DNA of 64,000 nt from Treponema sp. OMZ 838 (lineage in GTDB: Bacteria > Spirochaetota > Spirochaetia > Treponematales > Treponemataceae): the NCBI RefSeq assembly GCF_000775995.1, contig NZ_CP009227.1, positions 1,902,296 to 1,966,295 of the forward strand. Reading direction: 5' to 3'. The position numbers and the translations under genes were made by a program. This document shows, piece by piece, positions 6,205-58,155 of the stretch; within the stretch, counting starts at the first letter, position 1; every line of letters begins with the position of its first letter. A model generated the notes under the pieces. That model was not told the origin of the DNA and ran no database searches. It worked only from the letters and a program-made list of their open reading frames with translations.

Positions 6205-7272
6205 TTACTTAGTAGAATTTCTCAGCTCATCATACCAGGCATCATCGGTAGCAACCAGCCGTGTCTTTTCGGAATACTTAGGATATATGCCTTTTTTACC
6301 GGAATCCTTTACATTAAAAATGCCGGGATTATTTGCCGTCTTATCCGATGTCAGCGCATCTCGTATCTTTTGTATATCCGAGGCTGAAACCGTATTCGTA
6401 TTAACGGTAATCGGCGCATTTAAGACCGGAATTGAGCGGATGACGGTCATTTCACTTCCTGCAAAGGATGTGAAGGGTTCGTCGGCTCCTACGGTTACGC
6501 GGTATACGGCGCCTGTTTTATAATCTTCCCCGTCGAGCAGTTCATACACACCGATTGTCTGCGGGATCGCAAAGGCCGCCGCATCAGCATCACCACGGAA
6601 AAGATTTACCTGTGAGCCCTGATGAGAACCGGCAAACAGCACTTTGGAAAATACCTTGTCGCTCAAGATAAGATCATCGGTGTTGTCAATAGAAAAAGCC
6701 GCTGCTAAAACGCGTGCGGGAATAACAAAACCCGATGTGGAACTTGCCGCTACAAACGACATTCTTTTGCCTTGCAATAGGCTTAAATCAAAACTGCCGT
6801 CGGCTTTTCTATAGATATCGGCATCTTTCCTCTGGACGCCGATAAAGCTGTAATACTTTGCATCGTCAAGCGTTCCGCTGGGCCCCGAATTCGTTGCAAC
6901 AGGGATAACGGCGCTGTTCCGTTTATGTGCAGTAATGTATCCTTCGGCACCGACATAGGCCATATCAGCCTTACCGGAAACGAGCGCTTCCAATGCGATG
7001 TTATAATCGGTCGTGGTAAGAATTTTAACGTCTCGGCCGACAGCTTCTTTTAAAATTTCTTGGAATGCAGCACGGGCATCCTTCATGGATTCGCTTGATT
7101 CATTGGGATAAAAAACCATGGTAAGCGGCTTTTGTTCCTTTTTGCTGCATGAACAAACAAGGAGTGTTGATAGGCAAAGTACGAAAAAGAACGGTTTAAC
7201 ATACCGCAACAACTTTCCGACGTTTTGGCGGGACATATCACCAATTAAAAATGATTTCATCACTTTCTCCAA
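6205..7272 (-). CDS. phnD: phosphonate ABC transporter substrate-binding lipoprotein PhnD
   Basis: PhnD family periplasmic binding protein with a lipoprotein signal (LSTLLVCSCS); first gene of the operon. The real start is probably an internal Met near 7236-7260. Confidence 0.8.
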   Translation of the reverse strand: MEKVMKSFLIGDMSRQNVGKLLRYVKPFFFVLCLSTLLVCSCSKKEQKPLTMVFYPNESSESMKDARAAFQEILKEAVGRDVKILTTTDYNIALEALVSGKADMAYVGAEGYITAHKRNSAVIPVATNSGPSGTLDDAKYYSFIGVQRKDADIYRKADGSFDLSLLQGKRMSFVAASSTSGFVIPARVLAAAFSIDNTDDLILSDKVFSKVLFAGSHQGSQVNLFRGDADAAAFAIPQTIGVYELLDGEDYKTGAVYRVTVGADEPFTSFAGSEMTVIRSIPVLNAPITVNTNTVSASDIQKIRDALTSDKTANNPGIFNVKDSGKKGIYPKYSEKTRLVATDDAWYDELRNSTK

Positions 7273-13452: not shown

Positions 13453-13655
13453 TCACAACTCCTTTTATTTCCGCCGATATTCTAAGAAATCATACCCATT
13501 ATAGTCTGAAAAGAAAACTTTGTCAAACAACTCGGTAATCCCCAAACCTCATGGAGCATCAATTCCGCAGCGGATGAAGAACTCTGCCTACAGTATCGGC
13601 AGAGTAAGCAAAATATACAAGGGCTAGACGTTTTTTTTATTTTTTGTTAGGATGT

Positions 13656-14929: not shown

Positions 14930-15395
14930 CTGCTTGGAACCACCGCCATCCATGGCGGTTCTGCCTCTCCAACGCTTTTGCAAATAGACGATGCAGATGC
15001 TAGGAGTTAGGCAAAAAAGTACCGCAGGCACGGTACAAAATGTACATCCCTGTACATTTTGTACCTACGTGTTTGCCCTGCAAACACGCTACTGACTAGA
15101 ACCACCGCCATCCGTGGCGGAAATGATACGTTGAGCATTTATTGCAGAAGCGGCACGGATGCCGCTGATTTAAACAGAAGCGATATTTCGGCTTTGCCGA
15201 AATTCGCCATTAAAAGTGTACACGGATGTACACTTTTAATGATGCGACGCAGTAGATGCACCGTATCTCCAACGCTTTTGAAATAGACGGTATAGATACA
15301 AGGAGCTAGCTGAAAATAAAGCGGAGGCGTATCTATGATACGTTGAGCATTTATTTTCAGCGTACGACGCAGTAGATATGCCGTATATTTCAAAA
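14930..15395. repeat. hairpin-dense intergenic repeat element, copy A of a multi-copy family
   Basis: Shares about 150-bp and about 130-bp modules with 28597-28985 and a core with 25655-25690. The modules include GAACCACCGCCATCCRTGGCGG, GGTACAAAATGTACA-TCCC-TGTACATTTTGTACC, CGTGTTTGC-NNN-GCAAACACG and GCYGAAAATAAA...TTTATTTTCRGC. Confidence 0.65.
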
Positions 15396-23687: not shown

Positions 23688-25598
23688 GTGCTTGGTATGC
23701 AGTTTTCGGCAATAGAACATCGCAGTACGGATAATTTTTGTTATCCCCTCAATGAAAATGAGCTCATGATCGGCATTAAAACCGGCAGCGACATACGGCG
23801 TGTATTTATTATCTACGGAGATCCGTTCGACGGTTCGGTAACACCGGACGGCTGGGCATGGGAAGGCAAACGGCAGGAAATCACTCGCAAAAAAGATCTT
23901 CCGTATCATACATGGTGGCAGGTAACGGTTACGCTTCCTTATGGACGGTGTAAATACTGCTTTGAACTGCACGGTCAAGATGAAGGCGATGTCCGCTACT
24001 GTCTGGAAAACGGGTTTTACACGGCAGAGGAGCTTGTTACGCTGCGCCGAATAACCGGTAATTTTCCCGGTTTTGAGTTTCCGTGGCTGGACGGCGCCGA
24101 ATGCGTCCGCGTACCGGATTGGGTACCCCGCACGGTGTGGTATCAAATTTTTCCCGATCGGTTTTGCAGGGATACCGCTTCGCAGAAACCGAATGCTTTG
24201 CCGTGGCCCGCTGCCGAGGATGCCGTTACCAACAATGAACACTATGGCGGTACGCTTCGGGGTATTATCGAAAAGCTCGACTATCTTGCCGATTTGAACA
24301 TTACCGGTTTATATCTTAATCCGGTTAATGCTTCGCCGAGTGTGCATAAGTATGATACATCCGATTATTTGAATATCGATCCTGCATTCGGTACTGCGGA
24401 AGACTTATGCATGTTGGTGAAAGAAGCCCATGCACGCGGTATAAAAGTGATGCTGGACGGTGTCTTTAACCACTGCGGCTGGGACTTTGCACTGTGGCAG
24501 GATGTTGTCCGCAACGGAAAAGCCTCGCCGTATTTCGATTGGTTTATCGTACAAGAATGGCCGTTTGAAACCGTTGCAGAACCGGAATGTGAAGCCGCCG
24601 CGAGCCGACCGTCCGGTACAAACGGAAAAAGCGGACGATACAGCGTTTTTGCGTATGTCGATACGATGCCAAAGCTGAATACCAATAATCCTGCCGTCAT
24701 CGATTATCTGCTGAACGTATGCGAAACATGGGTGCGCAGTTATGATATTGACGGGCTCCGGCTCGATGTTGCGAATGAGCTTTCGCACACATTTTGCAGG
24801 CAGCTTTATCGGCGGATGCGCAGTCTTAAAAAAGGCTTTTACCTGCTCGGTGAAATATGGCGCAGTGCCTTGCCGTGGCTGCGCGGCGGCGAGTTGGATT
24901 CGGTAATGAATTATCCGCTCGCGCTGTGCTTTTGGAAATTCTTTTACGATAAAACGCTGCCTGCCCTGACTTTGGAGCAGGACATAAACGCTGTTTTTAC
25001 GGCCTATCCCGAACCTGTTACCGTAGGCCTGTTTAATCTGCTGGACTCCCATGATACGCCGCGCCTTTTTACCCGCAACGGCGGCGATGTGTCCGCCGTA
25101 TGGCAGCAATACGCCCTGCTGTTGAGCCTGCCCGGTTCGCCGTGTATCTATTACGGCAGCGAGGTTTTGCTTGCAGGCGGAAATGATCCCGATTGCCGCC
25201 GCTGTATGCCGTGGCAGGCTATCGAAGCAGGTGAATACGCCGAACCGATGAGCATGATGCGGCAGTTGATTGCTTTGCGCTATACGCATCCGGCAATGAC
25301 CGCTTCCGGTTACTCATATCTGCATGACGTGCCGCTTACCGAAAGCGAACCGAATAGAATTATTCATTTGCAAAAGTATGCCGAAACGGTAGAACCTGCG
25401 GAAACTACGGAGACCGTTGAAAGCGCGGAAATTCCGATTACGCGGAGCATAGACCTCATTCTCAATTGCGGTACGGCTCCGGTATCAATCGCACAGGTAA
25501 TAGATGAAAAGGCACGGGTATACCTCTCCCTGCGCTGCAGGGATAAAACGGTACAGCCCGGCGGCTTTATCTTTTTTGAACACCTCATCAACCGATGA
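23688..25598 (+). CDS. GH13 neopullulanase / cyclomaltodextrinase / maltogenic amylase family enzyme
   Basis: N-terminal domain followed by GH13 regions DGVFNHCG, GLRLDVANE, GEIW and LLDSHDTPR. Confidence 0.85.
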   Translation: MLGMQFSAIEHRSTDNFCYPLNENELMIGIKTGSDIRRVFIIYGDPFDGSVTPDGWAWEGKRQEITRKKDLPYHTWWQVTVTLPYGRCKYCFELHGQDEGDVRYCLENGFYTAEELVTLRRITGNFPGFEFPWLDGAECVRVPDWVPRTVWYQIFPDRFCRDTASQKPNALPWPAAEDAVTNNEHYGGTLRGIIEKLDYLADLNITGLYLNPVNASPSVHKYDTSDYLNIDPAFGTAEDLCMLVKEAHARGIKVMLDGVFNHCGWDFALWQDVVRNGKASPYFDWFIVQEWPFETVAEPECEAAASRPSGTNGKSGRYSVFAYVDTMPKLNTNNPAVIDYLLNVCETWVRSYDIDGLRLDVANELSHTFCRQLYRRMRSLKKGFYLLGEIWRSALPWLRGGELDSVMNYPLALCFWKFFYDKTLPALTLEQDINAVFTAYPEPVTVGLFNLLDSHDTPRLFTRNGGDVSAVWQQYALLLSLPGSPCIYYGSEVLLAGGNDPDCRRCMPWQAIEAGEYAEPMSMMRQLIALRYTHPAMTASGYSYLHDVPLTESEPNRIIHLQKYAETVEPAETTETVESAEIPITRSIDLILNCGTAPVSIAQVIDEKARVYLSLRCRDKTVQPGGFIFFEHLINR

Positions 25599-25599
25599 A

Positions 25600-25780
25600 C
25601 TTCCGTGTACATCGGTTGATGGCGAATTTTGGCAATGCCAAAATATCGCTTCTGTTATAACCACCGCCATCCGTGGCGGTAAAGTTTGCGGTGCAAACTC
25701 GATTATTTACGGGTGCGCCGTCCTGAACTTCGGAGCAAAGCTCCTCGTTGCAGGACATGCGCACGGCTAAAAACTTTTTC
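25600..25780. repeat. partial copy (copy C) of the hairpin repeat family
   Basis: Contains AACCACCGCCATCCGTGGCGGT plus the hairpins ATTTTGGCA-ATGCC-AAAAT and GTTTGCGGTGCAAAC. Confidence 0.5.
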
Positions 25781-28596: not shown

Positions 28597-28985
28597 TATA
28601 TTTGCAAAAGGGCGCTTTCGAAAAAAAGCTTCCGTAAGCTTTTGCAAAGAGACGGTATAGATGCTAGGAGCGTACAAAAAACACCCGCAGGCACGGTAAA
28701 AAATGTACGTCCTGTACATTTTTTACCTACGTGTTTGCTGCGCAAACACGCTGCTGCGTAGAACCACCGCCGTCCATGGCAGTTCTGATACGTCGAAGAC
28801 TAATTTGTTCGCAGCAACAAAGTAGATACACACATCCAGCGCTTTTGCAAAGAGACGGCGTAGATACAAGGAGTTAGCCGAAAATAAAGCGCAGGCGTAT
28901 TTATATACGTTGAGCATTTATTTTCGGCGTGCGACGCAGTAGATGCGTCGTATATTTGCAAAAGACTAGTCGACACGAAAAAGTT
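28597..28985. repeat. hairpin-dense intergenic repeat element, copy B of the family
   Basis: Collinear with 14967-15120 and with 15268-15395. Stems carry compensatory substitutions relative to copy A. Confidence 0.65.
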
Positions 28986-34987: not shown

Positions 34988-35128
34988 AGTCTAAAGTTTT
35001 ATCTGGGGGCCTCACTCCGTTCGGGGCGCTACGTCCGCTGTTCCGCTTTCGCTCCATTCCTCCACTTCGTTTCTGTACGGACAAGGATGTCCGTGATGTG
35101 AATCAGCAGCTCCTATCGCTAACCCTGT
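34988..35128. repeat. left copy of a roughly 150-bp direct repeat flanking the GNAT/ATPase cassette
   Basis: About 90% identical to 37097-37245. Begins with the iteron-like CTAAAGTTTTATCTGG and the motif CCTCACTCCGTTCGGG. Confidence 0.7.
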
Positions 35129-35142
35129 GGGCAGCACAGAGC

Positions 35143-35637
35143 TTATATCTCCTTGCACATATATACTATTCCGATGTTCCTGCCGAATTTCCGCCAACAG
35201 TTCTTCAATCTTCCGTATTCAATAAACCCATGCTTCTTATGAAATGCAATGCTTTGCTCATTCTCATCGGATATATCAACAACAAGCTTTTTCATGCTGT
35301 GTTGTTTTGCGTCATTTTCCAGCAATGATACGATTTCCCGTCCCACACCTTTTCCGGTCATTTCCTGTTTAATGAAATACATGCAATCGCCGAGTTCGTT
35401 AAATGTTCGGATGTTTTTATATTTTTCCAGCATACAAAATCCGATAACCTCGTTTGCATTATTCATTATCGCGTATGCGCTGACAACATCGTCATCAACG
35501 AGGGTGTTAAAGAAGTCATACCCAACTTTTTCGGAACGGTATGCTGCTGTTGTGTGTTCAATATAATAATTGAAAATATCGATTGTTTCTTTTTTATATT
35601 TTGCAGTCAGCCTGTTAAAATGAATATCCATCAGCAC
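35143..35637 (-). CDS. GNAT family N-acetyltransferase
   Basis: Acetyl-CoA binding motif region (QEMTGKGVGREIV) of the GNAT fold. Confidence 0.8.
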   Translation of the reverse strand: MLMDIHFNRLTAKYKKETIDIFNYYIEHTTAAYRSEKVGYDFFNTLVDDDVVSAYAIMNNANEVIGFCMLEKYKNIRTFNELGDCMYFIKQEMTGKGVGREIVSLLENDAKQHSMKKLVVDISDENEQSIAFHKKHGFIEYGRLKNCWRKFGRNIGIVYMCKEI

Positions 35638-35731
35638 CTCTCCTACTTTTTATACAAAACCAGCATAAAAATTTACCCTGTTCTATTATATGTATTGTAG
35701 CGGTATTATCTACAGCAATAATCGTAAAAGC

Positions 35732-36901
35732 TCACCGTAAATGCTTTTCCCAATCGCGCCAGCTCACATAGGAAGTACCGTTGATGTCCATACTCATATC
35801 GGATAAATAAAACACCGCATTTTTTGCCGTTTCATCATTCAGCAGCTGTAAATATTTTTTTGTGCTGCGCGACAGCTTTGCATCCGGGGCATTGGAGCTT
35901 TTTATCTCAATCGCAAAAGTACGGTTCCAATCCGCAATCGTATCTACCTCCAAGCCCTTGCTGTCTCTAAAAAAGGTCAGATTCGCTTTTTTGCCCTGAT
36001 TCATGCGATATTTCAGTAATTCTGAAACGGCAAAGGTCTCAACCGCTGCTCCCTTGTATCTGCTCAAGAGCAAAGCCTCTTTTGTCTCCAGCCGTAAAAG
36101 ATGACACAGCAGTCCTGAATCAACAAAATAGAGCTTCGGCGTTTTTACAATACTTCTTCCAAGATTATTGGTGTTCGGTTCAAGGAAGTGGATAATAAAC
36201 GAAGCCTCTAAAATAGAAAGCCAGCTCTTGACCGTCGGTGCGGAAATACCGGTATCCCGCGCAATGCTATCCATAGAAAGCAGCTGCCCGCTCTGCACCG
36301 CACATATTTGAACAAACTTCTTAAACAGCGAAATATTGCCGGAATTAATCTGATCCCGTATATCCAAGTCCAAGTAGGTATCGATATAATTTTCATACCA
36401 ATCCTCCGGAATAAAATGCCGGGCAGTATCATAGAGGGGCGGATATTGACCCGAAAAAATCAGCGTATACGGATTGTCCGGCAGCACACCGCCCGTCTGT
36501 AATTCGTGAATGGAAAACGGCAGCAGCTTCAAAAACGCTGCTCGCCCCGCCAAACTGTCCGTCATATTTGCTTTTAACCGGAGCTGACTGGAACCCGTTA
36601 CGATAAACGTTCCCGGAGCGCTCTGTTCCCGATCCACATGCAGTTTTATCGCATCAAAGATTTCCGGTACTTTCTGCGCCTCATCAATCACCGCACCATC
36701 GGGAAACGCCATAATAAAGTCATTCGGATTCGACGCTGCAAGATCCCGCATTGTCCGGTCATCAAACGTCACATATTTTTTATCAGGGAAAACCGCTTTT
36801 GCCAGTGTTGACTTCCCGCTCTGCCGCGGCCCGGTTATCCCAATCACCGGAAACTGAGAAGCCAACCGCCGCAACGCCTCTTCCGCTGTCCTTTTAACCA
36901 T
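35732..36901 (-). CDS. AAA+ ATPase of the AAA_14/DUF4143 family (COG1373)
   Basis: Walker A GPRQSGKST, Walker B-like FIVTGSS, and a C-terminal DUF4143-like region. Confidence 0.8.
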   Translation of the reverse strand: MVKRTAEEALRRLASQFPVIGITGPRQSGKSTLAKAVFPDKKYVTFDDRTMRDLAASNPNDFIMAFPDGAVIDEAQKVPEIFDAIKLHVDREQSAPGTFIVTGSSQLRLKANMTDSLAGRAAFLKLLPFSIHELQTGGVLPDNPYTLIFSGQYPPLYDTARHFIPEDWYENYIDTYLDLDIRDQINSGNISLFKKFVQICAVQSGQLLSMDSIARDTGISAPTVKSWLSILEASFIIHFLEPNTNNLGRSIVKTPKLYFVDSGLLCHLLRLETKEALLLSRYKGAAVETFAVSELLKYRMNQGKKANLTFFRDSKGLEVDTIADWNRTFAIEIKSSNAPDAKLSRSTKKYLQLLNDETAKNAVFYLSDMSMDINGTSYVSWRDWEKHLR

Positions 36902-36981
36902 ATCGCCGCTCCTTTTTTAATCCGATTACAAGTAGACCTGTTTACCCCTTCTGTTGCTGAAGAGGTCTAGCATTGGAGATG

Positions 36982-37115
36982 ATAATCCAAAGTATACTAT
37001 GGGAGAATCCTAAAGTCAATATTGGGAATAATCCAAAGTTTTATATGGTGATAATCTAAAGTTTTGACGGGTTGTAATCTAAAGTTTTATGCAGTGATAA
37101 TCTAAGGTCTTGTTT
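36982..37115. repeat. iteron-like array of 6 tandem 22-23 bp repeats (consensus roughly GATAATCYAAAGTTTTATATGG)
   Basis: AATCC/AATCT cores at 36985, 37007, 37030, 37053, 37076 and 37099, with regular 22-23 bp spacing, upstream of the AAA ATPase gene. A seventh copy lies at 34988-35006. Confidence 0.65.
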
Positions 37116-37245
37116 TTATATGGTGGTTTTCTCACTCCGTTCGGGTCGCTACGTCTGCTGTTTCGCTTTCGCTCCATTTCTCCGCTTCGTTTCTATACGG
37201 ACAAGGATGTCCGTGATGTGAATCAGAAGCTCCCATCGCTAATCC
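37097..37245. repeat. right copy of the roughly 150-bp direct repeat
   Basis: See 34988-35128. The 30-bp start motif TATATGGTGGTTTTCTCACTCCGTTCGGG also occurs at 42270-42300. Confidence 0.7.
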
Positions 37246-37335
37246 TATTGTAGCGGTATACATTATCTCTCTATAGACTAAGGCTATGAGCAGGGGGCGG
37301 AGCGGTTTGTTACATTATACCGCCCGCCTATGATA

Positions 37336-52059: not shown

Positions 52060-52257
52060 ATGATTATGGTAAGAGAAGCGGTTAAAGAAGATTTGTCTGA
52101 ATTATTGAATCTATATCTGTTTTTACACGAAAAAGATATTCCGGAAAATTCAAGTCGTCTGGAAAATACATGGAACACAATTATTGAAGATGAGAATCAT
52201 CATATCATCGTCAATGAAATAAACGGTAAAATCGAAATCCGAGGAGATGATTTTTAG
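52060..52257 (+). pseudogene. N-terminal fragment of a GNAT acetyltransferase (65 aa)
   Basis: MIMVREAVKEDLSELLNLY-type GNAT N-terminus; ends before the acetyl-CoA binding motif. Confidence 0.4.
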
Positions 52258-53069: not shown

Positions 53070-54011
53070 TCAGCTTTCCAATATTCTCCCTATATGGCGT
53101 TTTTCAAAGAACATATCTTTGTTTGTAAAAACGATAATTACAGCGGCAACTGTAACACAGATTGTTTCGACGCATTTTGTCGTTTGGGTCATCGCAATCT
53201 TTTCCTGCATGAAGTTTACAAAAAGGTGAAAAATAATACTTGCAAGCATGCTTCGGTTATTTTTCACGTAAACCCATGTTGTTATAAAACCGAACGGAAT
53301 AACGGAAATAAAAAAGTTGAACATATACAAAACATTTATTTCACGTATTCCAAAATGGTAGGTGCCTGGGATGAAAAACAGCGGTAGGTGCCATAATGCC
53401 CATACAAAGCCGAATATAATCGATTCTGTGAACCAACTGCAATATTGAGCGATTGAGTCTTCACCGTAACCGCGCCAACCTACTTCTTCCAAAACCGAAG
53501 CAAGCAAAATCGTTAAAAATGCGGAAGTGACTCCTGCTCCGGTAAAAGAAAAACCCTCCGTGACGGAAAACTGATTTAAAGACTGCCCCCACAACGTTGA
53601 AAGTAAAATTGAGCAGCTGACTATCAGTGCAAAAACAATTACGGCAGCAAAAATGTATTTCAGTCTTAATTTATAAAACCTGAAGATCTTGCGTTTAAAG
53701 TCCGCTTTTAGTTCTTTACTTTTTGAACCAAACACGGTGATGAGTGCAATTATTGCCGGTGAAAGGAGTCCGAGCAGCATTGTGAGTGTACAAATAAAAC
53801 CTTCTTTAAAAATAAGCGCGCAAAACCAAAAGCCCCATGTTGCTAGAATGGTCGTAACATAAAACCTTACGGGTCTGTATATATAGGGTTTGTTTATGCA
53901 ATCTACCGATATGGTTATTGCCTGACGATTTTGACTGCATTTTTCTGTAAGTTCTTCCTGCACAAGATTCTTTTGCTGTCGCAAGGTTTCTGATTTTTTC
54001 GAAAAGTTCAT
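53070..54011 (-). CDS. CPBP family intramembrane metalloprotease (CAAX protease / Abi)
   Basis: Motifs EExxxR (LEEVGWRGY), FxxxH (FVWALWHLPLFF) and HLFVN. Confidence 0.8.
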   Translation of the reverse strand: MNFSKKSETLRQQKNLVQEELTEKCSQNRQAITISVDCINKPYIYRPVRFYVTTILATWGFWFCALIFKEGFICTLTMLLGLLSPAIIALITVFGSKSKELKADFKRKIFRFYKLRLKYIFAAVIVFALIVSCSILLSTLWGQSLNQFSVTEGFSFTGAGVTSAFLTILLASVLEEVGWRGYGEDSIAQYCSWFTESIIFGFVWALWHLPLFFIPGTYHFGIREINVLYMFNFFISVIPFGFITTWVYVKNNRSMLASIIFHLFVNFMQEKIAMTQTTKCVETICVTVAAVIIVFTNKDMFFEKRHIGRILES

Positions 54012-54144: not shown

Positions 54145-54930
54145 TCAAGACATCAATTTGTTATAAATGGCTTCATCCTGTTTGCTGAATACATTAAACA
54201 CGATTTTCATTGTGCTGTTGTTTTTTGCTTTCCAGTCTTCAACCGTTGAGACGGCAATCTCCGCAGCTTTTTGAGCAGGGAACCGGAACACACCGGTGGA
54301 AATACAGCAAAAGGCAACAGATCCTACGCCGTTTTCCGCTGCGAGGTTCAGACAGGACGTGTAGCAGTTTGCAAGCAGCGTGCAGTCGCGGTCGGTAAGT
54401 TGACCGCTGATAATCGGCCCTACGGTATGCAGCACATACTTACATGGCAGGTTAAACGCAGGCGTAATCTTTGCTGTTCCGATCGGCTCTTTGTGTCCTT
54501 GTTTTTGCATAATGTCGGCACACACGGCGCGCAGCTGAATACCTGCGAAGGTGTGGATGCAGTTGTCGATACATGCATGGCAGGGTTGCCAGCATCCGGT
54601 CATACCGCTGTTCGCCGCGTTCACAATCGCATCGACCTTAAGCGTTGTAATGTCACCCCGCCACACATACCAATCCCCGTTACCCCGTCCGGTAGCCGGT
54701 TTTAAATTGGCAAGGTCGGTAATGCCGCGCTGCCGGATCGCTTCCTGCAAATAGCTGTCCTGTATGCGCAAGAATTCTTCGCTTGTATGCTGCGGCGGAC
54801 GAACGTTCATCAGAGAACGGAGCAGGTTCTTCTGTTCATCCTCATCATTCGGCATCTGCACATCGCGATAGTTGGGATTTTCCCTTAAAAGATATTCGAT
54901 TAAAAAAATACGCCGTTCCTTTTGTGTCAT
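54145..54930 (-). CDS. macro-domain protein (ADP-ribose / protein-ADP-ribose hydrolase-like) with an N-terminal extension and a Cys-rich motif
   Basis: VDAIVNAANSGMTGC ... HTVGP ... macro-domain core with C..C.C.H between strands; about 80-aa N-terminal helical extension. Confidence 0.75.
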   Translation of the reverse strand: MTQKERRIFLIEYLLRENPNYRDVQMPNDEDEQKNLLRSLMNVRPPQHTSEEFLRIQDSYLQEAIRQRGITDLANLKPATGRGNGDWYVWRGDITTLKVDAIVNAANSGMTGCWQPCHACIDNCIHTFAGIQLRAVCADIMQKQGHKEPIGTAKITPAFNLPCKYVLHTVGPIISGQLTDRDCTLLANCYTSCLNLAAENGVGSVAFCCISTGVFRFPAQKAAEIAVSTVEDWKAKNNSTMKIVFNVFSKQDEAIYNKLMS

Positions 54931-54982
54931 CTTTCCCTTCCATAAAATGCATCAATATTTTGGAAATATACGACTCTCATTC

Positions 54983-55117
54983 TACCGCTGCTTACTATCG
55001 CCCCAGCCGTGCCAATGCCCGTGTATCGGGATCTACATCGTATTGTATTTCTTCATAGAGATTATCGTCAATACAGCGGCGTTCAATCATCTTTTCAATG
55101 ATGGTGTTGCGGCAGAG
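54983..55117. repeat. about 137-bp direct repeat, copy 1: orphan duplicate of the 3' end of gene 56461..57084
   Basis: About 96% identical to 56451-56589. Confidence 0.7.
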
Positions 55118-55209
55118 GGAATATTTGAAAAAGGAATTCAACATACAAAGGATTTCGTGTTATTGGCGGCTTTTGAGCTTACCATCACTGATCACCCCTG
55201 AATCTTCGA

Positions 55210-55288
55210 TTGACAAAGAACGGCAAATAATTATAATCACGCTAATAAAACCTTGTTTTGTAAATCCGATTTTACAAAACGAGGTTTT
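55210..55288 (+). promoter_or_regulatory. consensus sigma70 promoter TTGACA-N16-TATAAT, immediately followed by a 17-bp hairpin
   Basis: TTGACA at 55210, TATAAT at 55232, hairpin AAACCTTGTTTTGTAAA-TCCGAT-TTTACAAAACGAGGTTT at 55247-55288, then a roughly 130-nt leader before 55422. Confidence 0.5.
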
Positions 55289-55421
55289 CACTTCTTAATC
55301 TAAAGAGCGGTGATTCGTTGGATTCGATTATTGGCATTGGTAAAGGTATGTTTTGTTCGAGACCTATTCCAATGCATCTCTAATGCTTGATTCTAACACA
55401 TTTTTATTTTAGGAGTTTATA

Positions 55422-55901
55422 ATGATACACACCTACAAGGCGCGGATTTACAGGATTCTTGTAAATATCGCTATGGGATTGGCAGTTGCTGCAGTTATAA
55501 GTGTGGTTGCAGGTTTTTTTATATCGAGCAATATAATAAGAGCCCTTATTTTTATTGCTGTTCTGGCGGGATATGTTTGGCTTGTTATTATTGGTAATCT
55601 GATTACTATAGAAGTCGATGAAAAAACGCTGACTGTAAAAAAAGGCAAAAAAACGGATGTGTATGATCTTGCAACAACGGCCGTCAGAGCAGAACTCGTT
55701 ACCACAACATACGGCCGATCTCGAGCTGGCAGCGATACATCCTGCACACTGTATTTGACGAGGCAGGGTGAACAGGAAGTATCCGTTGATTGTGAACTTA
55801 TCGGTGTTTCCCAGTTTAACGAGTTGTTGGGGAATTTGGGGATTACGGGAGATACCGTAACTAAGCTCGAAGAACCGGTACACACTAAAGACAATAACTA
55901 G
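55422..55901 (+). CDS. hypothetical membrane protein
   Basis: 159 aa with two N-terminal TM helices; RBS GGAG. Confidence 0.4.
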   Translation: MIHTYKARIYRILVNIAMGLAVAAVISVVAGFFISSNIIRALIFIAVLAGYVWLVIIGNLITIEVDEKTLTVKKGKKTDVYDLATTAVRAELVTTTYGRSRAGSDTSCTLYLTRQGEQEVSVDCELIGVSQFNELLGNLGITGDTVTKLEEPVHTKDNN

Positions 55902-55911
55902 GAGAATTCAA

Positions 55912-56361
55912 ATGGCACGAGTTTATTATTTTATTATTATTCCAATAGCGGTGGCTATCTATCTGGCGTATATGTTTTTTAAAGTGAAAACCGATAAAGC
56001 GCACATTGCCGGCTGGCTGAATGAAAATCCGAATGCGGCAAAAGTATATATCGCCAAGCCCACTTCATTACTCGGCTTCCTGTCCAAAGCATGGAATCAT
56101 CTGAACGTTATTAGTGTAGACGGACAGCGCCCGCTCTTTTTTAGAGAAAAACTTTCGGTAGGTTTCTATGTTGCTGCCGGAACACATGTTGTTGAATCTT
56201 CTTTTTCAAAAACACGTCCCGGATTTTTTTACCGTACCGTTACAACATCCTACGGACCGAGCAAGCAGGAAATCAGCGTAGAGTCTGCAAAATCGTATAA
56301 CTACACCTTTGATAAAGGTGAAGAATCCTACCATTTTGAACAAATAAACGAGGTATTATAG
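55912..56361 (+). CDS. hypothetical membrane-anchored protein
   Basis: 149 aa with one N-terminal TM helix; RBS GGAG; terminator hairpin at 56410-56443. Confidence 0.4.
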   Translation: MARVYYFIIIPIAVAIYLAYMFFKVKTDKAHIAGWLNENPNAAKVYIAKPTSLLGFLSKAWNHLNVISVDGQRPLFFREKLSVGFYVAAGTHVVESSFSKTRPGFFYRTVTTSYGPSKQEISVESAKSYNYTFDKGEESYHFEQINEVL

Positions 56362-56409
56362 GTATCGATTTGTAATTCGGTTCGGATCAAGCCTATGAAA
56401 ATGATATGG

Positions 56410-56443
56410 GAAACCTCTAAAAACAGAAGTTTTTAGAGGTTTC
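56410..56443. terminator. bidirectional terminator GAAACCTCTAAAAAC-AGAA-GTTTTTAGAGGTTTC
   Basis: Perfect 15-bp inverted repeat between convergent genes. Confidence 0.6.
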
Positions 56444-56460
56444 TCTTTTACCACTGCTTA

Positions 56461-57084
56461 CTATCGCTCCCTCCGTGCCAATGCCCGTGTATCGGGATCT
56501 ACATCGTATTGTATTTCTTCATAGAGATTATCGTCAATACAGCGGCGTTCAATCATCTTTTCAACGATGGTGTTACGGCAGAGGGGGCATTTCATGTTAC
56601 GATACAGTATCCGGAGAATATCGTTAAACACGGGATCTTCGGCTAACGCCTTTGACTCTAGAGCCGTATGTTTTATCTCATGTATATCGAAGATAGTGCA
56701 CAGCTCAAGCAAGTTAAAAAGCTCAGTCTTTTTGTTTTCAGAGTAATATTTCAAGCAGACTTTTATAAAGGCATTTCTGGTATTGTCGTCATACCGGTCT
56801 TTTAAAAAATCATAGACGGCAGGATCATTGAAGGGAACAAGCGCTTCGATAATATCTTGCCGAAACGGCTTATTTTCAGTTGCTTCAAAAGAATCGAAGA
56901 GTACCTGTGCAGGAATTTTGATTTGCCGTTCTTCGAATAATCGGATAAGTCTTTTTTTCAACGGCAGTTCAGCTTCAAGAAATACATTCGAAAGTTTTTG
57001 GATATCGGCTTCGCTTGCACGTCTTCGTACCCATCTCCAAAGGCTGATACGTTCCAGTCGGGTTGGGGAGGGTTTTCTTTTCAA
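56461..57084 (-). CDS. hypothetical alpha-helical protein
   Basis: 207 aa; its 3' end is duplicated at 54983-55117; 4-nt overlap with the upstream gene. Confidence 0.4.
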   Translation of the reverse strand: MKRKPSPTRLERISLWRWVRRRASEADIQKLSNVFLEAELPLKKRLIRLFEERQIKIPAQVLFDSFEATENKPFRQDIIEALVPFNDPAVYDFLKDRYDDNTRNAFIKVCLKYYSENKKTELFNLLELCTIFDIHEIKHTALESKALAEDPVFNDILRILYRNMKCPLCRNTIVEKMIERRCIDDNLYEEIQYDVDPDTRALARRER

Positions 57085-57761
57085 CAGTGCAATGGCTGTA
57101 TCCGCCGTATACTGTTTTTGTTTTTCCTTCGTGTCTTTCGTTTTATGTGCGCGATTGCGAGATAGCGGTCGATTGCCGCATCATGTTCGTTGCGGAGCTT
57201 TTCTGTCAGCTCCGCTTCAGTGTATCCGATATCTTCCGCATATATATCGTAAAAAGTAGAGTCGATAAACTCTTTTTTATTATCTTCTGTAATATGGGTA
57301 CCGAAATAACGAGCGAGGTATACAACCGCCTCATATTTATCGAGTAGCAGTAAATCGCTCAAGCCGATCATGCCATTATACATATCTTCTTCGGCATACT
57401 GTTCGAATTTTTTGTACAGCTCGGTCTTATCGAACCGCCTCGACTCGGCGAGCTTCCGTACAAATCCGAATACCTGCAATTCGCCCCAATCTCTATCGTC
57501 CATTGTGTTAAAATATGCGATAACGCGCTCGTCGATTTTTTCTCTGTGCGGATATAATTCCAAGAGATCGTACAGATATTCGGTGCGGCTGCCTTCACAT
57601 TGCGGATCGTAGGCTTTGTTTTCTATAATGTTAGCATATAAGATTTCTTCAATTTGCTCCGAAGGTTGAATACAGCCTTTTTTCAGCAAAAGATACGGTA
57701 CACCGGTACCCTTCTCAAGTTCCTGTTCAAAAACGGTAATCATAGTTACTCCTATTTTCAA
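57081..57761 (-). CDS. hypothetical alpha-helical protein
   Basis: 226 aa, acidic, no motif. Confidence 0.4.
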   Translation of the reverse strand: MKIGVTMITVFEQELEKGTGVPYLLLKKGCIQPSEQIEEILYANIIENKAYDPQCEGSRTEYLYDLLELYPHREKIDERVIAYFNTMDDRDWGELQVFGFVRKLAESRRFDKTELYKKFEQYAEEDMYNGMIGLSDLLLLDKYEAVVYLARYFGTHITEDNKKEFIDSTFYDIYAEDIGYTEAELTEKLRNEHDAAIDRYLAIAHIKRKTRRKNKNSIRRIQPLHC

Positions 57762-58155
57762 TACTCCAATTGTGTAATAACCCCGACATCAACATTGAGC
57801 CCGCGGATTTTCAGTGCATTAAAAATGATATTTTCCACATCTACTGAATATTTTTGCGTAAAAGCGCAAAAAATTCCAGTAGATGTTTTGCTTATTCTAT
57901 AAAATCTTTCCCATTTTGTCTCTTTTCTTTCTCAATAAGGCTGAAAAAAAGCCGAAAATCATAAAGACGAACGTTTATTTTCAGCCGTTGAAATAGCGCG
58001 GCTGAAAAACACTGCGAGTTTGCTTTCGCAAACGTCGTAGATTATATGTGCGCTTTTCGCGCACGAATGCAACAGTTTCCAAAGTTGATACTTTGTTCAA
58101 CTGTTGCATTTTAAGGAAAGTTTATCTATATAGAGGCAAATTGGAGGTTCAATAC

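Follow-up and report, generated by a model that had tools for sequence, protein, structure and literature searches.

At icd, phage 21 and e14 provide the target gene with a replacement 3' end that is carried by the element itself, and homology-facilitated illegitimate recombination (HFIR) is a process discussed in the natural-transformation literature. With respect to 5' leaders, the hairpin of ompA is a 5'-terminal stabilising stem-loop, and some leader terminators are controlled by antiterminator proteins; the YdbS/YdbT-type architecture is that of bacterial membrane-anchored PH-like domain proteins. These are the closest described counterparts of a locus in Treponema sp. OMZ 838, the genome of which has been described (PMC4276824) and which has been proposed as type strain of T. 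sinense (PMC12781046). In the window analysed here, 64,000 nt of contig NZ_CP009227.1 (positions 1,902,296 to 1,966,295, forward strand), two copies of a gene 3' end flank a cassette that consists of a promoter, a hairpin leader and two genes for small membrane proteins. This is probably a strain-variable, promoter-bearing cassette, an insertion or deletion made by recombination and flanked by direct repeats, with a hairpin that is most likely a terminator or a 5' stem-loop.

The duplicated gene end and the cassette between its copies

Pairwise alignment and an in-register identity scan place the core of the direct repeat at 54983-55119 (copy A) and 56449-56585 (copy B), 137 nt with 7 mismatches and ~95% identity, and this identity drops sharply at either end of the core; a repeat search of the window returned the slightly longer pair 54980-55126 and 56446-56592 (147 nt, 93% identity, spacing 1466). 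Both copies lie on the - strand and represent the 3' end of a Treponema-restricted gene (56461-57761, -), for which relatives encode one protein and which is split here into ORFs of 226 and 207 aa; it is referred to as the 434-aa gene. Copy B, joined to the gene body, takes in the final 41 codons of ORF 56461-57084 (-) with their stop codon and 12 nt of 3' flank. Copy A is the orphan version of the same 41 codons, stop codon and 12 nt; it contains only a 49-codon ORF (54995-55144, -) with no gene body attached, and it retains the native downstream flank towards a Macro-domain gene, a flank that equally borders the single repeat where the cassette is absent. The earlier note on this DNA, made from the letters alone, had described 54983-55117 as ~96% identical to 56451-56589 and as a gene 3' end without its gene body, and the alignment bears it out. 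Each copy further contains a promoter-like site on the - strand, TTGACG-N18-TACAAT (10/12; 55071-55042 and 56537-56508). The one in copy A faces the start of the Macro gene, ~110 nt off, and the orphan fragment might supply a promoter to that gene.

The insert between the repeats measures 1,329 bp (55120-56448) and is composed of an 88-nt spacer, a consensus sigma-70 promoter, the hairpin leader, the genes g159 and g149, and a terminator. The promoter, TTGACA and TATAAT separated by a 16-nt spacer (55210-55237, +), matches the consensus at 12/12 positions and is indeed the textbook TTGACA-N16-TATAAT site that had been claimed to lie between the copies. Perfect consensus sites number 2 in the 64 kb, compared with 0.04 expected; the sole other one is TTGACA-N17-TATAAT at 13498-13526 (-). 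The two small transmembrane proteins that had been proposed for this interval were likewise recovered, and exact matches of these two proteins and of the Macro protein assign the window to OMZ 838. The gene g159 (JO41_09410; 55422-55901, +) encodes 159 aa with two membrane helices and a PH-like beta-sandwich capped by a C-terminal helix, g149 (JO41_09415; 55912-56361, +) encodes 149 aa with one N-terminal membrane helix and a beta-sandwich domain, as judged from the ORFs, the predicted helices and AlphaFold models of moderate confidence, and each gene has an AGGAG ribosome-binding site and predicted N-terminal membrane helices. Neither protein belongs to a significant family in scans of Pfam, NCBIfam and PADLOC. 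The best Pfam match of g159, DUF6672, stays below threshold (E 0.032, 14.4 bits vs a cut-off of 24.3), its resemblance to bacterial PH-domain proteins holds at the level of the fold only, with the Pfam PH-family threshold not reached, and PDB sequences searched with profiles of g159 and g149 returned noise only. The right end of the insert is formed by a terminator hairpin (56408-56445; dG -24 kcal/mol, then UCUUUU), on which g149 and the 434-aa gene converge from either side. This terminator and the leader hairpin (55247-55288) have the same outer stem, AAACCTC...GAGGTTT, which could be the usual terminator style of this genome or a sign of common origin.

The core of the cassette is found well beyond this locus. 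Treponema alone has homologues of g159 and g149, which are always paired and lie in unrelated neighbourhoods. In the comparison set, which consists of isolate genomes and metagenomic contigs (L-numbered loci), cores with the same promoter stand beside unrelated genes in L015, L019, L024-L034 and L044, and the TTGACA...TATAAT arrangement is kept upstream of the g159 homologues of L015, L025, L026, L029, L030 and L044. Likeness to the window at the DNA level starts exactly at the -35 box (55208/55209; L044, L025, L026, L015) and stops at the g149 stop codon. Because the likeness spans this interval and the promoter is conserved, the conserved unit is the promoter, g159 and g149, with the leader as an optional part. 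Two parts of the insert are peculiar to the OMZ 838 clade: the spacer of 88 nt at its left end (55120-55207), which cassettes of other Treponema lineages do not share, and the 87-nt terminator region (56362-56448). A scan of species-representative genomes yielded no copy >83% identical to g159 of the window, and the representative of the window's own species gave no match. The cassette of L015 carries the first 17 codons of the dCMP-deaminase gene that follows the cassette in L025, and then unrelated sequence (6990-7070, compared with L025 4990-5070). The core has been relocated several times among oral Treponema, taking scraps of neighbouring genes along, and since L015 carries such a scrap, relocation with hitch-hiking gene fragments is recurrent. 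No fragment of the 434-aa gene was found in the cassette loci L015, L025, L026 and L044.

Filled, empty and eroded sites and the origin of the duplication

A comparison of related strains, advised by the earlier note, revealed both states of the locus. The filled site, i.e., the arrangement of the window, is present in the complete genome of OMZ 857 (L045), in L005, L008 and in >10 other contigs, and is suggested for OMZ 855 by protein accession order; all three isolates of the species (OMZ 838, 855 and 857) carry the cassette genes. In close relatives g159-g149 and copy A always adjoin the Macro-domain gene, and the other neighbour varies. At the empty sites L049 (110-kb contig), L050 (77 kb) and L051 the cassette is absent and the repeat is present as a single copy. 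These three contigs are collinear with the window across the fliK-flgD-flgE operon, the 434-aa gene (98.3% identity) and the Macro and FMN-reductase genes, and their single repeat has the left flank of copy A and the right flank of copy B, followed by the gene body. The empty junction of L039 and L041 is that of L049, and L040 has an empty junction in yet another context. In a sister clade (L011, L036, L038, L042) the 434-aa gene adjoins fliK, its 3' neighbour is another one, and the cassette is absent. The filled state as an assembly artefact is ruled out by the complete genomes of OMZ 838 and OMZ 857 and by >10 independent contigs, and a collapsed-repeat misassembly behind the empty state is judged unlikely, given that L049, L050, L051, L039 and L041 derive from different samples and that the single copy of L049 keeps to the B type until close to the A-type flank.

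A third group of contigs carries eroded sites. L006, L007 and L009 have kept copy A and the cassette and lost the 434-aa gene, with the junction in the 10-nt microhomology CTCTAAAAAC; the left arm of the terminator hairpin at 56408-56445 is the microhomology of this L007-type deletion. L001-L003 and L010 retain the first ~30 nt of copy B, which run at CCGTGC into a 155-nt piece of the 3' end of xerC. Such junctions indicate that some contigs derive from the filled site through microhomology deletions.

The origin that probably accounts for these arrangements is a recombinational one. On entry of the cassette, a single homologous exchange within the 434-aa gene would have made one end, and a single illegitimate joint directly upstream of the final 41 codons of that gene the other. 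This would amount to HFIR or, equivalently, to Campbell-type integration of a circle with the 137-bp segment on it. In both cases the 137-bp gene end would be duplicated, such that the incoming copy B, beside the cassette terminator, stays on the gene and the resident copy A is stranded at the native downstream flank. The duplicated segment as homologous anchor, the lack of mobility genes and the illegitimate joints nearby fit such a process. The repeats would stay recombinationally active, so that the cassette could be lost again, and microhomology deletions have eroded the locus further in other strains. Recombination between A and B would release a 1,466-bp circle with the junction …GGTTTCTCTTT-repeat-AATATTTGAA… and leave an empty site, and because the empty site would be regenerated in this way, the change could have run in either direction. 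The earlier note had spoken of an insertion followed by a duplication footprint; the filled and empty sites of relatives fit this description, with the qualifications that the footprint is not a target duplication of the transposon type and that the empty sites could be losses through recombination between the repeats.

Along these lines, it is possible, if not the favoured view, that the filled state is the older one, copy A being an old pseudogene remnant that gene conversion has kept B-like, and that the empty sites arose by A x B recombination with loss of the 1,466-bp circle. Several observations weigh against entry of the cassette into an empty site and have to be considered here. A x B recombination could have emptied these sites secondarily, all of the empty sites stem from short-read metagenome assemblies, though from at least five independent samples, and the donor configuration, with the cassette convergent with the 434-aa gene and no copy A, was not found among the loci listed. 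Beyond copy A, ~45 nt (55120-55160) are weakly similar in register to the 434-aa gene (49%; 2 of ~990 other offsets score as high), which at the protein level amounts to EILCMLNSFFKYSLCR vs DILRILYRNMKCPLCR. The stretch 55120-55167 (-, 49% in-register identity) can tentatively be annotated as a degenerate continuation of copy A, and copy A may, on this hint, be what remains of an older, longer segment that gene conversion has homogenised. Furthermore, copy A is orthologous and near-identical in OMZ 838 and OMZ 857, from which it follows that the duplication predates the split of the two strains. Their B alleles differ, A-B identity being ~95% in OMZ 838 and ~89% in OMZ 857. In L008 copies A and B have the variants G..ATC in common, which other A copies do not have, and these suggest conversion. 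Because of these variants and of the near-identical A and divergent B copies in OMZ 838 and OMZ 857, exchange between the repeats appears to have continued after the duplication. The single copy of L041, A-like on the left and B-like on the right, and the presence of the cassette genes in all three isolates are also in keeping with an older filled state. On the other hand, the single copy of L049 and L050 has B-type last codons almost to the flank, so that the crossover would have to fall in the first ~15 nt, and L011 and L036 of the sister clade have the 434-aa gene by fliK with neither the cassette nor a second copy. An earlier insertion with duplication would still be required, and the timing would change, not the kind of event.

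Far less probable is site-specific integration by a tyrosine recombinase acting in trans, either in the manner of phage 21 and e14 at icd or by exploitation of the host XerC/D. Such integration classically duplicates the 3' end of a gene and leaves the displaced native end stranded beyond the insert, and an XerC-like gene adjoins the 434-aa gene in L005, L006 and L007. However, the 1.3-kb insert has no integrase, and the XerC-like gene (306 bits as XerC, 117 bits to integron integrase) lies outside the insert in L005, is part of a housekeeping cluster (dprA-topA-xerC) and does not adjoin the locus in the window, OMZ 857 or L049. The cassettes of other lineages carry no fragment of the 434-aa gene, and other rearrangements at the locus use random microhomologies.

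Further classes of element were rejected. A transposon, insertion sequence (IS) or miniature inverted-repeat transposable element (MITE) is excluded by the lack of terminal inverted repeats, of any transposase family and of further copies in the window, and by a duplication of 137 bp vs 2-14 bp; a repeat search and direct comparison of the end sequences gave no inverted repeats that would pair the insert ends 55120 and 56448. For an integrase-mediated element the repeated gene 3' end and the single-copy empty sites do fit, and the insert encodes only g159 and g149. An integron cassette is disfavoured by the conserved promoter of its own and by the XerC-like nature of the nearby recombinase, with no search aimed at attC motifs. 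A phage or plasmid moron is unsupported, as phages, plasmids and viral contigs searched for the cassette gave no match.

The leader and its hairpin

The predicted 5' leader extends from 55244 to 55421 (+), its start being set from the -10 box. Folding and alignment place a hairpin with an 18-bp stem and a 6-nt loop at 55247-55288 (+), followed by UUUUCACUUCUU, the first U's of which belong to the stem. Its arms, 55247-55264 and 55271-55288, form 18 pairs including one T:G (U.G), and the stem is strictly perfect in most relatives, not in the window. The hairpin after the -10 box that the earlier note had described as a perfect 17-bp stem is thus real, with one more pair and one U.G among them. 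The distance from its end to the ATG at 55422 is 133 nt, in agreement with the leader of roughly 130 nt claimed before. In comparison with shuffled controls, the test named for the leader at the outset, the hairpin folds far better (dG -21.1 kcal/mol, z -7.0), and the remaining 142 nt fold no better (z -1.45, 18/200 shuffles as good); the whole 178-nt leader has z -4.9.

The hairpin is retained in four lineages, the window type, L044, L026 and L025, with g159 80-73% identical in the latter three, whose leaders are conserved only in the hairpin and the last ~45 nt. In a five-sequence alignment 9/9 lower-stem pairs are kept, 5 sequence-pair cells are changed to G.U (+ strand), and L025 has one C-A mismatch and a weakened stem; in the upper stem the sequence varies and pairing is partly kept. 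RNAalifold on the five sequences yields 16 consensus pairs, with 0 changed on both sides, 5 one-sided changes (mostly G.U) and 4 breaks in some sequences. Long U-tracts follow the stem in L044 (UUUUUCUUUUUUU) and L026 (UUUUUUGUGUUU). In L015-L018 the entire leader is deleted, and promoter and ribosome-binding site are kept. This distribution assigns the hairpin to the cassette, not to the insertion site, and because its fold is well beyond chance expectation and four lineages conserve it, the hairpin is probably functional. Its action is most likely that of an RNA, with a promoter-proximal terminator and a 5'-terminal stem-loop as the two candidate roles, and in one or the other it would damp or stabilise the output of the very strong promoter; regulation, if any, would proceed via a trans-acting factor rather than a built-in ligand sensor. 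Two details tell against such a function, namely that no hairpin pair is changed on both sides (RNAalifold, four divergent lineages only) and that the U-tract of the window is weak (UUUUCACU). A consensus terminator scan did not list the leader hairpin, the stem of which has only 4 G-C pairs.

The choice of attenuator, riboswitch or operator offered by the earlier note narrows accordingly in part: a terminator or 5' stem-loop is plausible, an operator possible and a riboswitch unlikely. As an operator, the inverted repeat after the -10 box would serve as DNA that binds a dimeric repressor and not as an RNA element. Relative to the consensus promoter it covers about +3 to +45, and its outer arms AAACCTCGT and ACGAGGTTT are conserved in sequence. 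Yet most substitutions give G.U on the + strand, which are A-C mismatches on the other strand, the inner stem varies in sequence and still pairs, U-tracts follow the stem in L044 and L026, and no regulator gene accompanies the cassette, all of which makes a DNA site a doubtful explanation. Hardly credible is a leader that, as a riboswitch or classic attenuator, switches between alternative folds to sense a ligand or the translation of a leader peptide: the z of the whole leader would favour it, but the signal comes from the hairpin alone, the mid-leader is unconserved between lineages, for the leader, Rfam yielded spurious microRNA models only in a search of the locus (E<=5) and no match in one of the whole window, and no upstream aptamer or antiterminator fits because the terminator-like stem begins ~3 nt after the predicted start. 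A leader peptide was rejected as well, the only short ORF, MFCSRPIPMHL, being absent in L044 and not conserved.

Surrounding genes, significance and comparison with known systems

The ORFs 56461-57084 and 57081-57761, which the earlier note had taken for two helical proteins, proved to be the two halves of the one 434-aa gene. A run of five T's at 57121-57125 corresponds to T6 in relatives (e.g., L005), and this 1-nt deletion shifts the frame; it may mark a true pseudogene or be a homopolymer sequencing error. Relatives encode a single protein of 427-434 aa (L005, OMZ 857, P0001-P0011), and the gene is intact in OMZ 857 (427 aa), L005, L011, L049 and all metagenomic relatives. The protein family is confined to Treponema, and scans of Pfam, NCBIfam and PADLOC gave no significant family. 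An exact-protein look-up of the 207-aa ORF returned no match because of the frameshift, and the same look-up of the Macro protein of the window found no identical copy among the indexed contigs. The local gene model is corrected to one frameshifted gene instead of two.

The Macro-domain gene (JO41_09400; 54145-54930, -), coding for a protein-ADP-ribose hydrolase, is the steady left neighbour in the filled and in most empty sites (L039, L041, L049, L050). Between the FMN-reductase and Macro genes lies a CPBP/Rce1-like protease gene (53070-54011, -), which is absent from the empty-site contigs L041, L049 and L050, so that a second presence/absence difference falls within a few kb. A TD-1 repeat element is located upstream of fliK (58006-58115, +; Rfam, 75.9 bits), and four TD-2 copies are found elsewhere in the window at 15028-15121 (-), 15149-15245 (+), 25583-25680 (-) and 28691-28783 (-). 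One or two TD-1-like copies stand between the Macro gene and copy A in L001, L004, L005, L007, L045 and L049 and are missing in the window, where a ~10-nt overlap (54945-54954) is seen at the corresponding junction; dispersed repeats of the TD type are located at several rearrangement borders. A 65-codon ORF at 52060-52257 (+) corresponds to the initial ~55 residues of a GNAT acetyltransferase (147 aa), the full-length form of which is present in L005 (237-680). This ORF is a further truncated gene remnant of the region, and OMZ 857 likewise has a 63-aa call there. Another direct-repeat pair, 35011-35126 and 37131-37246 (116 nt, 92%, spacing 2,120), encloses a GNAT acetyltransferase gene (35143-35637, -) and a 389-aa ATPase gene (35732-36901, -; AAA/DUF4143-like by eye), and the block 35011-37246 may be a second insertion with duplication. 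In L049 a 417-aa AAA_14/DUF4143 gene (Pfam-annotated) lies between fliK and the 434-aa gene, a place in which the window has no such gene.

The duplicated gene end is a genuine finding and largely explained, in a locus rich in rearrangements. The cassette is an ordinary present-or-absent insertion by recombination and not a new kind of element, such that current understanding is unchanged. The orphan gene fragment finds its explanation as a by-product of cassette gain or loss, and the region in the T. sinense/T. medium/T. vincentii group presents itself as a recombination-scrambled plasticity zone with TD-1-type repeats, gene-end scraps and microhomology deletions. As a strain-variable, Treponema-restricted two-gene envelope operon with a very strong promoter, the cassette is a candidate accessory trait. 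The hairpin, together with the natural variant in which the leader is deleted, offers a simple test system for control through the 5' leader in a group in which few regulatory RNAs have been characterised. A bolder and rather unlikely proposal would have promoter, hairpin, g159 and g149 form a recombinase-free mobile cassette of oral treponemes that spreads between genomes by DNA uptake and uses gene-end fragments, the 137-bp piece among them, as homology handles for integration and for excision via the 1,466-bp circle; its hairpin would be a signal-responsive, promoter-proximal terminator with read-through governed by a trans factor, tuning two envelope proteins of a new family.

With regard to the encoded proteins, the model of g159 (pLDDT 71) resembles membrane-anchored PH-like proteins of the YdbS/YdbT type and, among eukaryotic proteins, EROS/CYBC1 (PDB 8kei_D); it differs from both in having no sequence-family match, and moderate model confidence applies to either comparison. 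The leader hairpin is like promoter-proximal intrinsic terminators and 5' stabilising stem-loops in its stability, in its predicted place a few nt at most from the 5' end, with a strong promoter before it and the ribosome-binding site after it, and in the U-tract of some lineages. Unlike leader terminators under antiterminator control, this candidate has a weak U-tract in the window and is part of a leader with no conserved antiterminator. As in phage 21 and e14 at icd and in islands at tRNA genes, there is a 3' end on the intact gene, an orphan copy at the far border and a single copy at empty sites; in contrast to phage 21/e14 elements, the insert is only 1.3 kb long, has neither an integrase nor a defined att core, and its cassette occurs elsewhere with no gene fragment. 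In comparison with HFIR, the process at this locus is deduced from sequence, and the donor configuration is missing from the loci listed. Otherwise the locus is like HFIR or Campbell-type integration, in which a direct repeat that can later recombine out arises if the illegitimate joint falls within the homology or a circle integrates, and in which foreign DNA devoid of mobility genes joins next to a region of homology, with one homologous and one illegitimate end.

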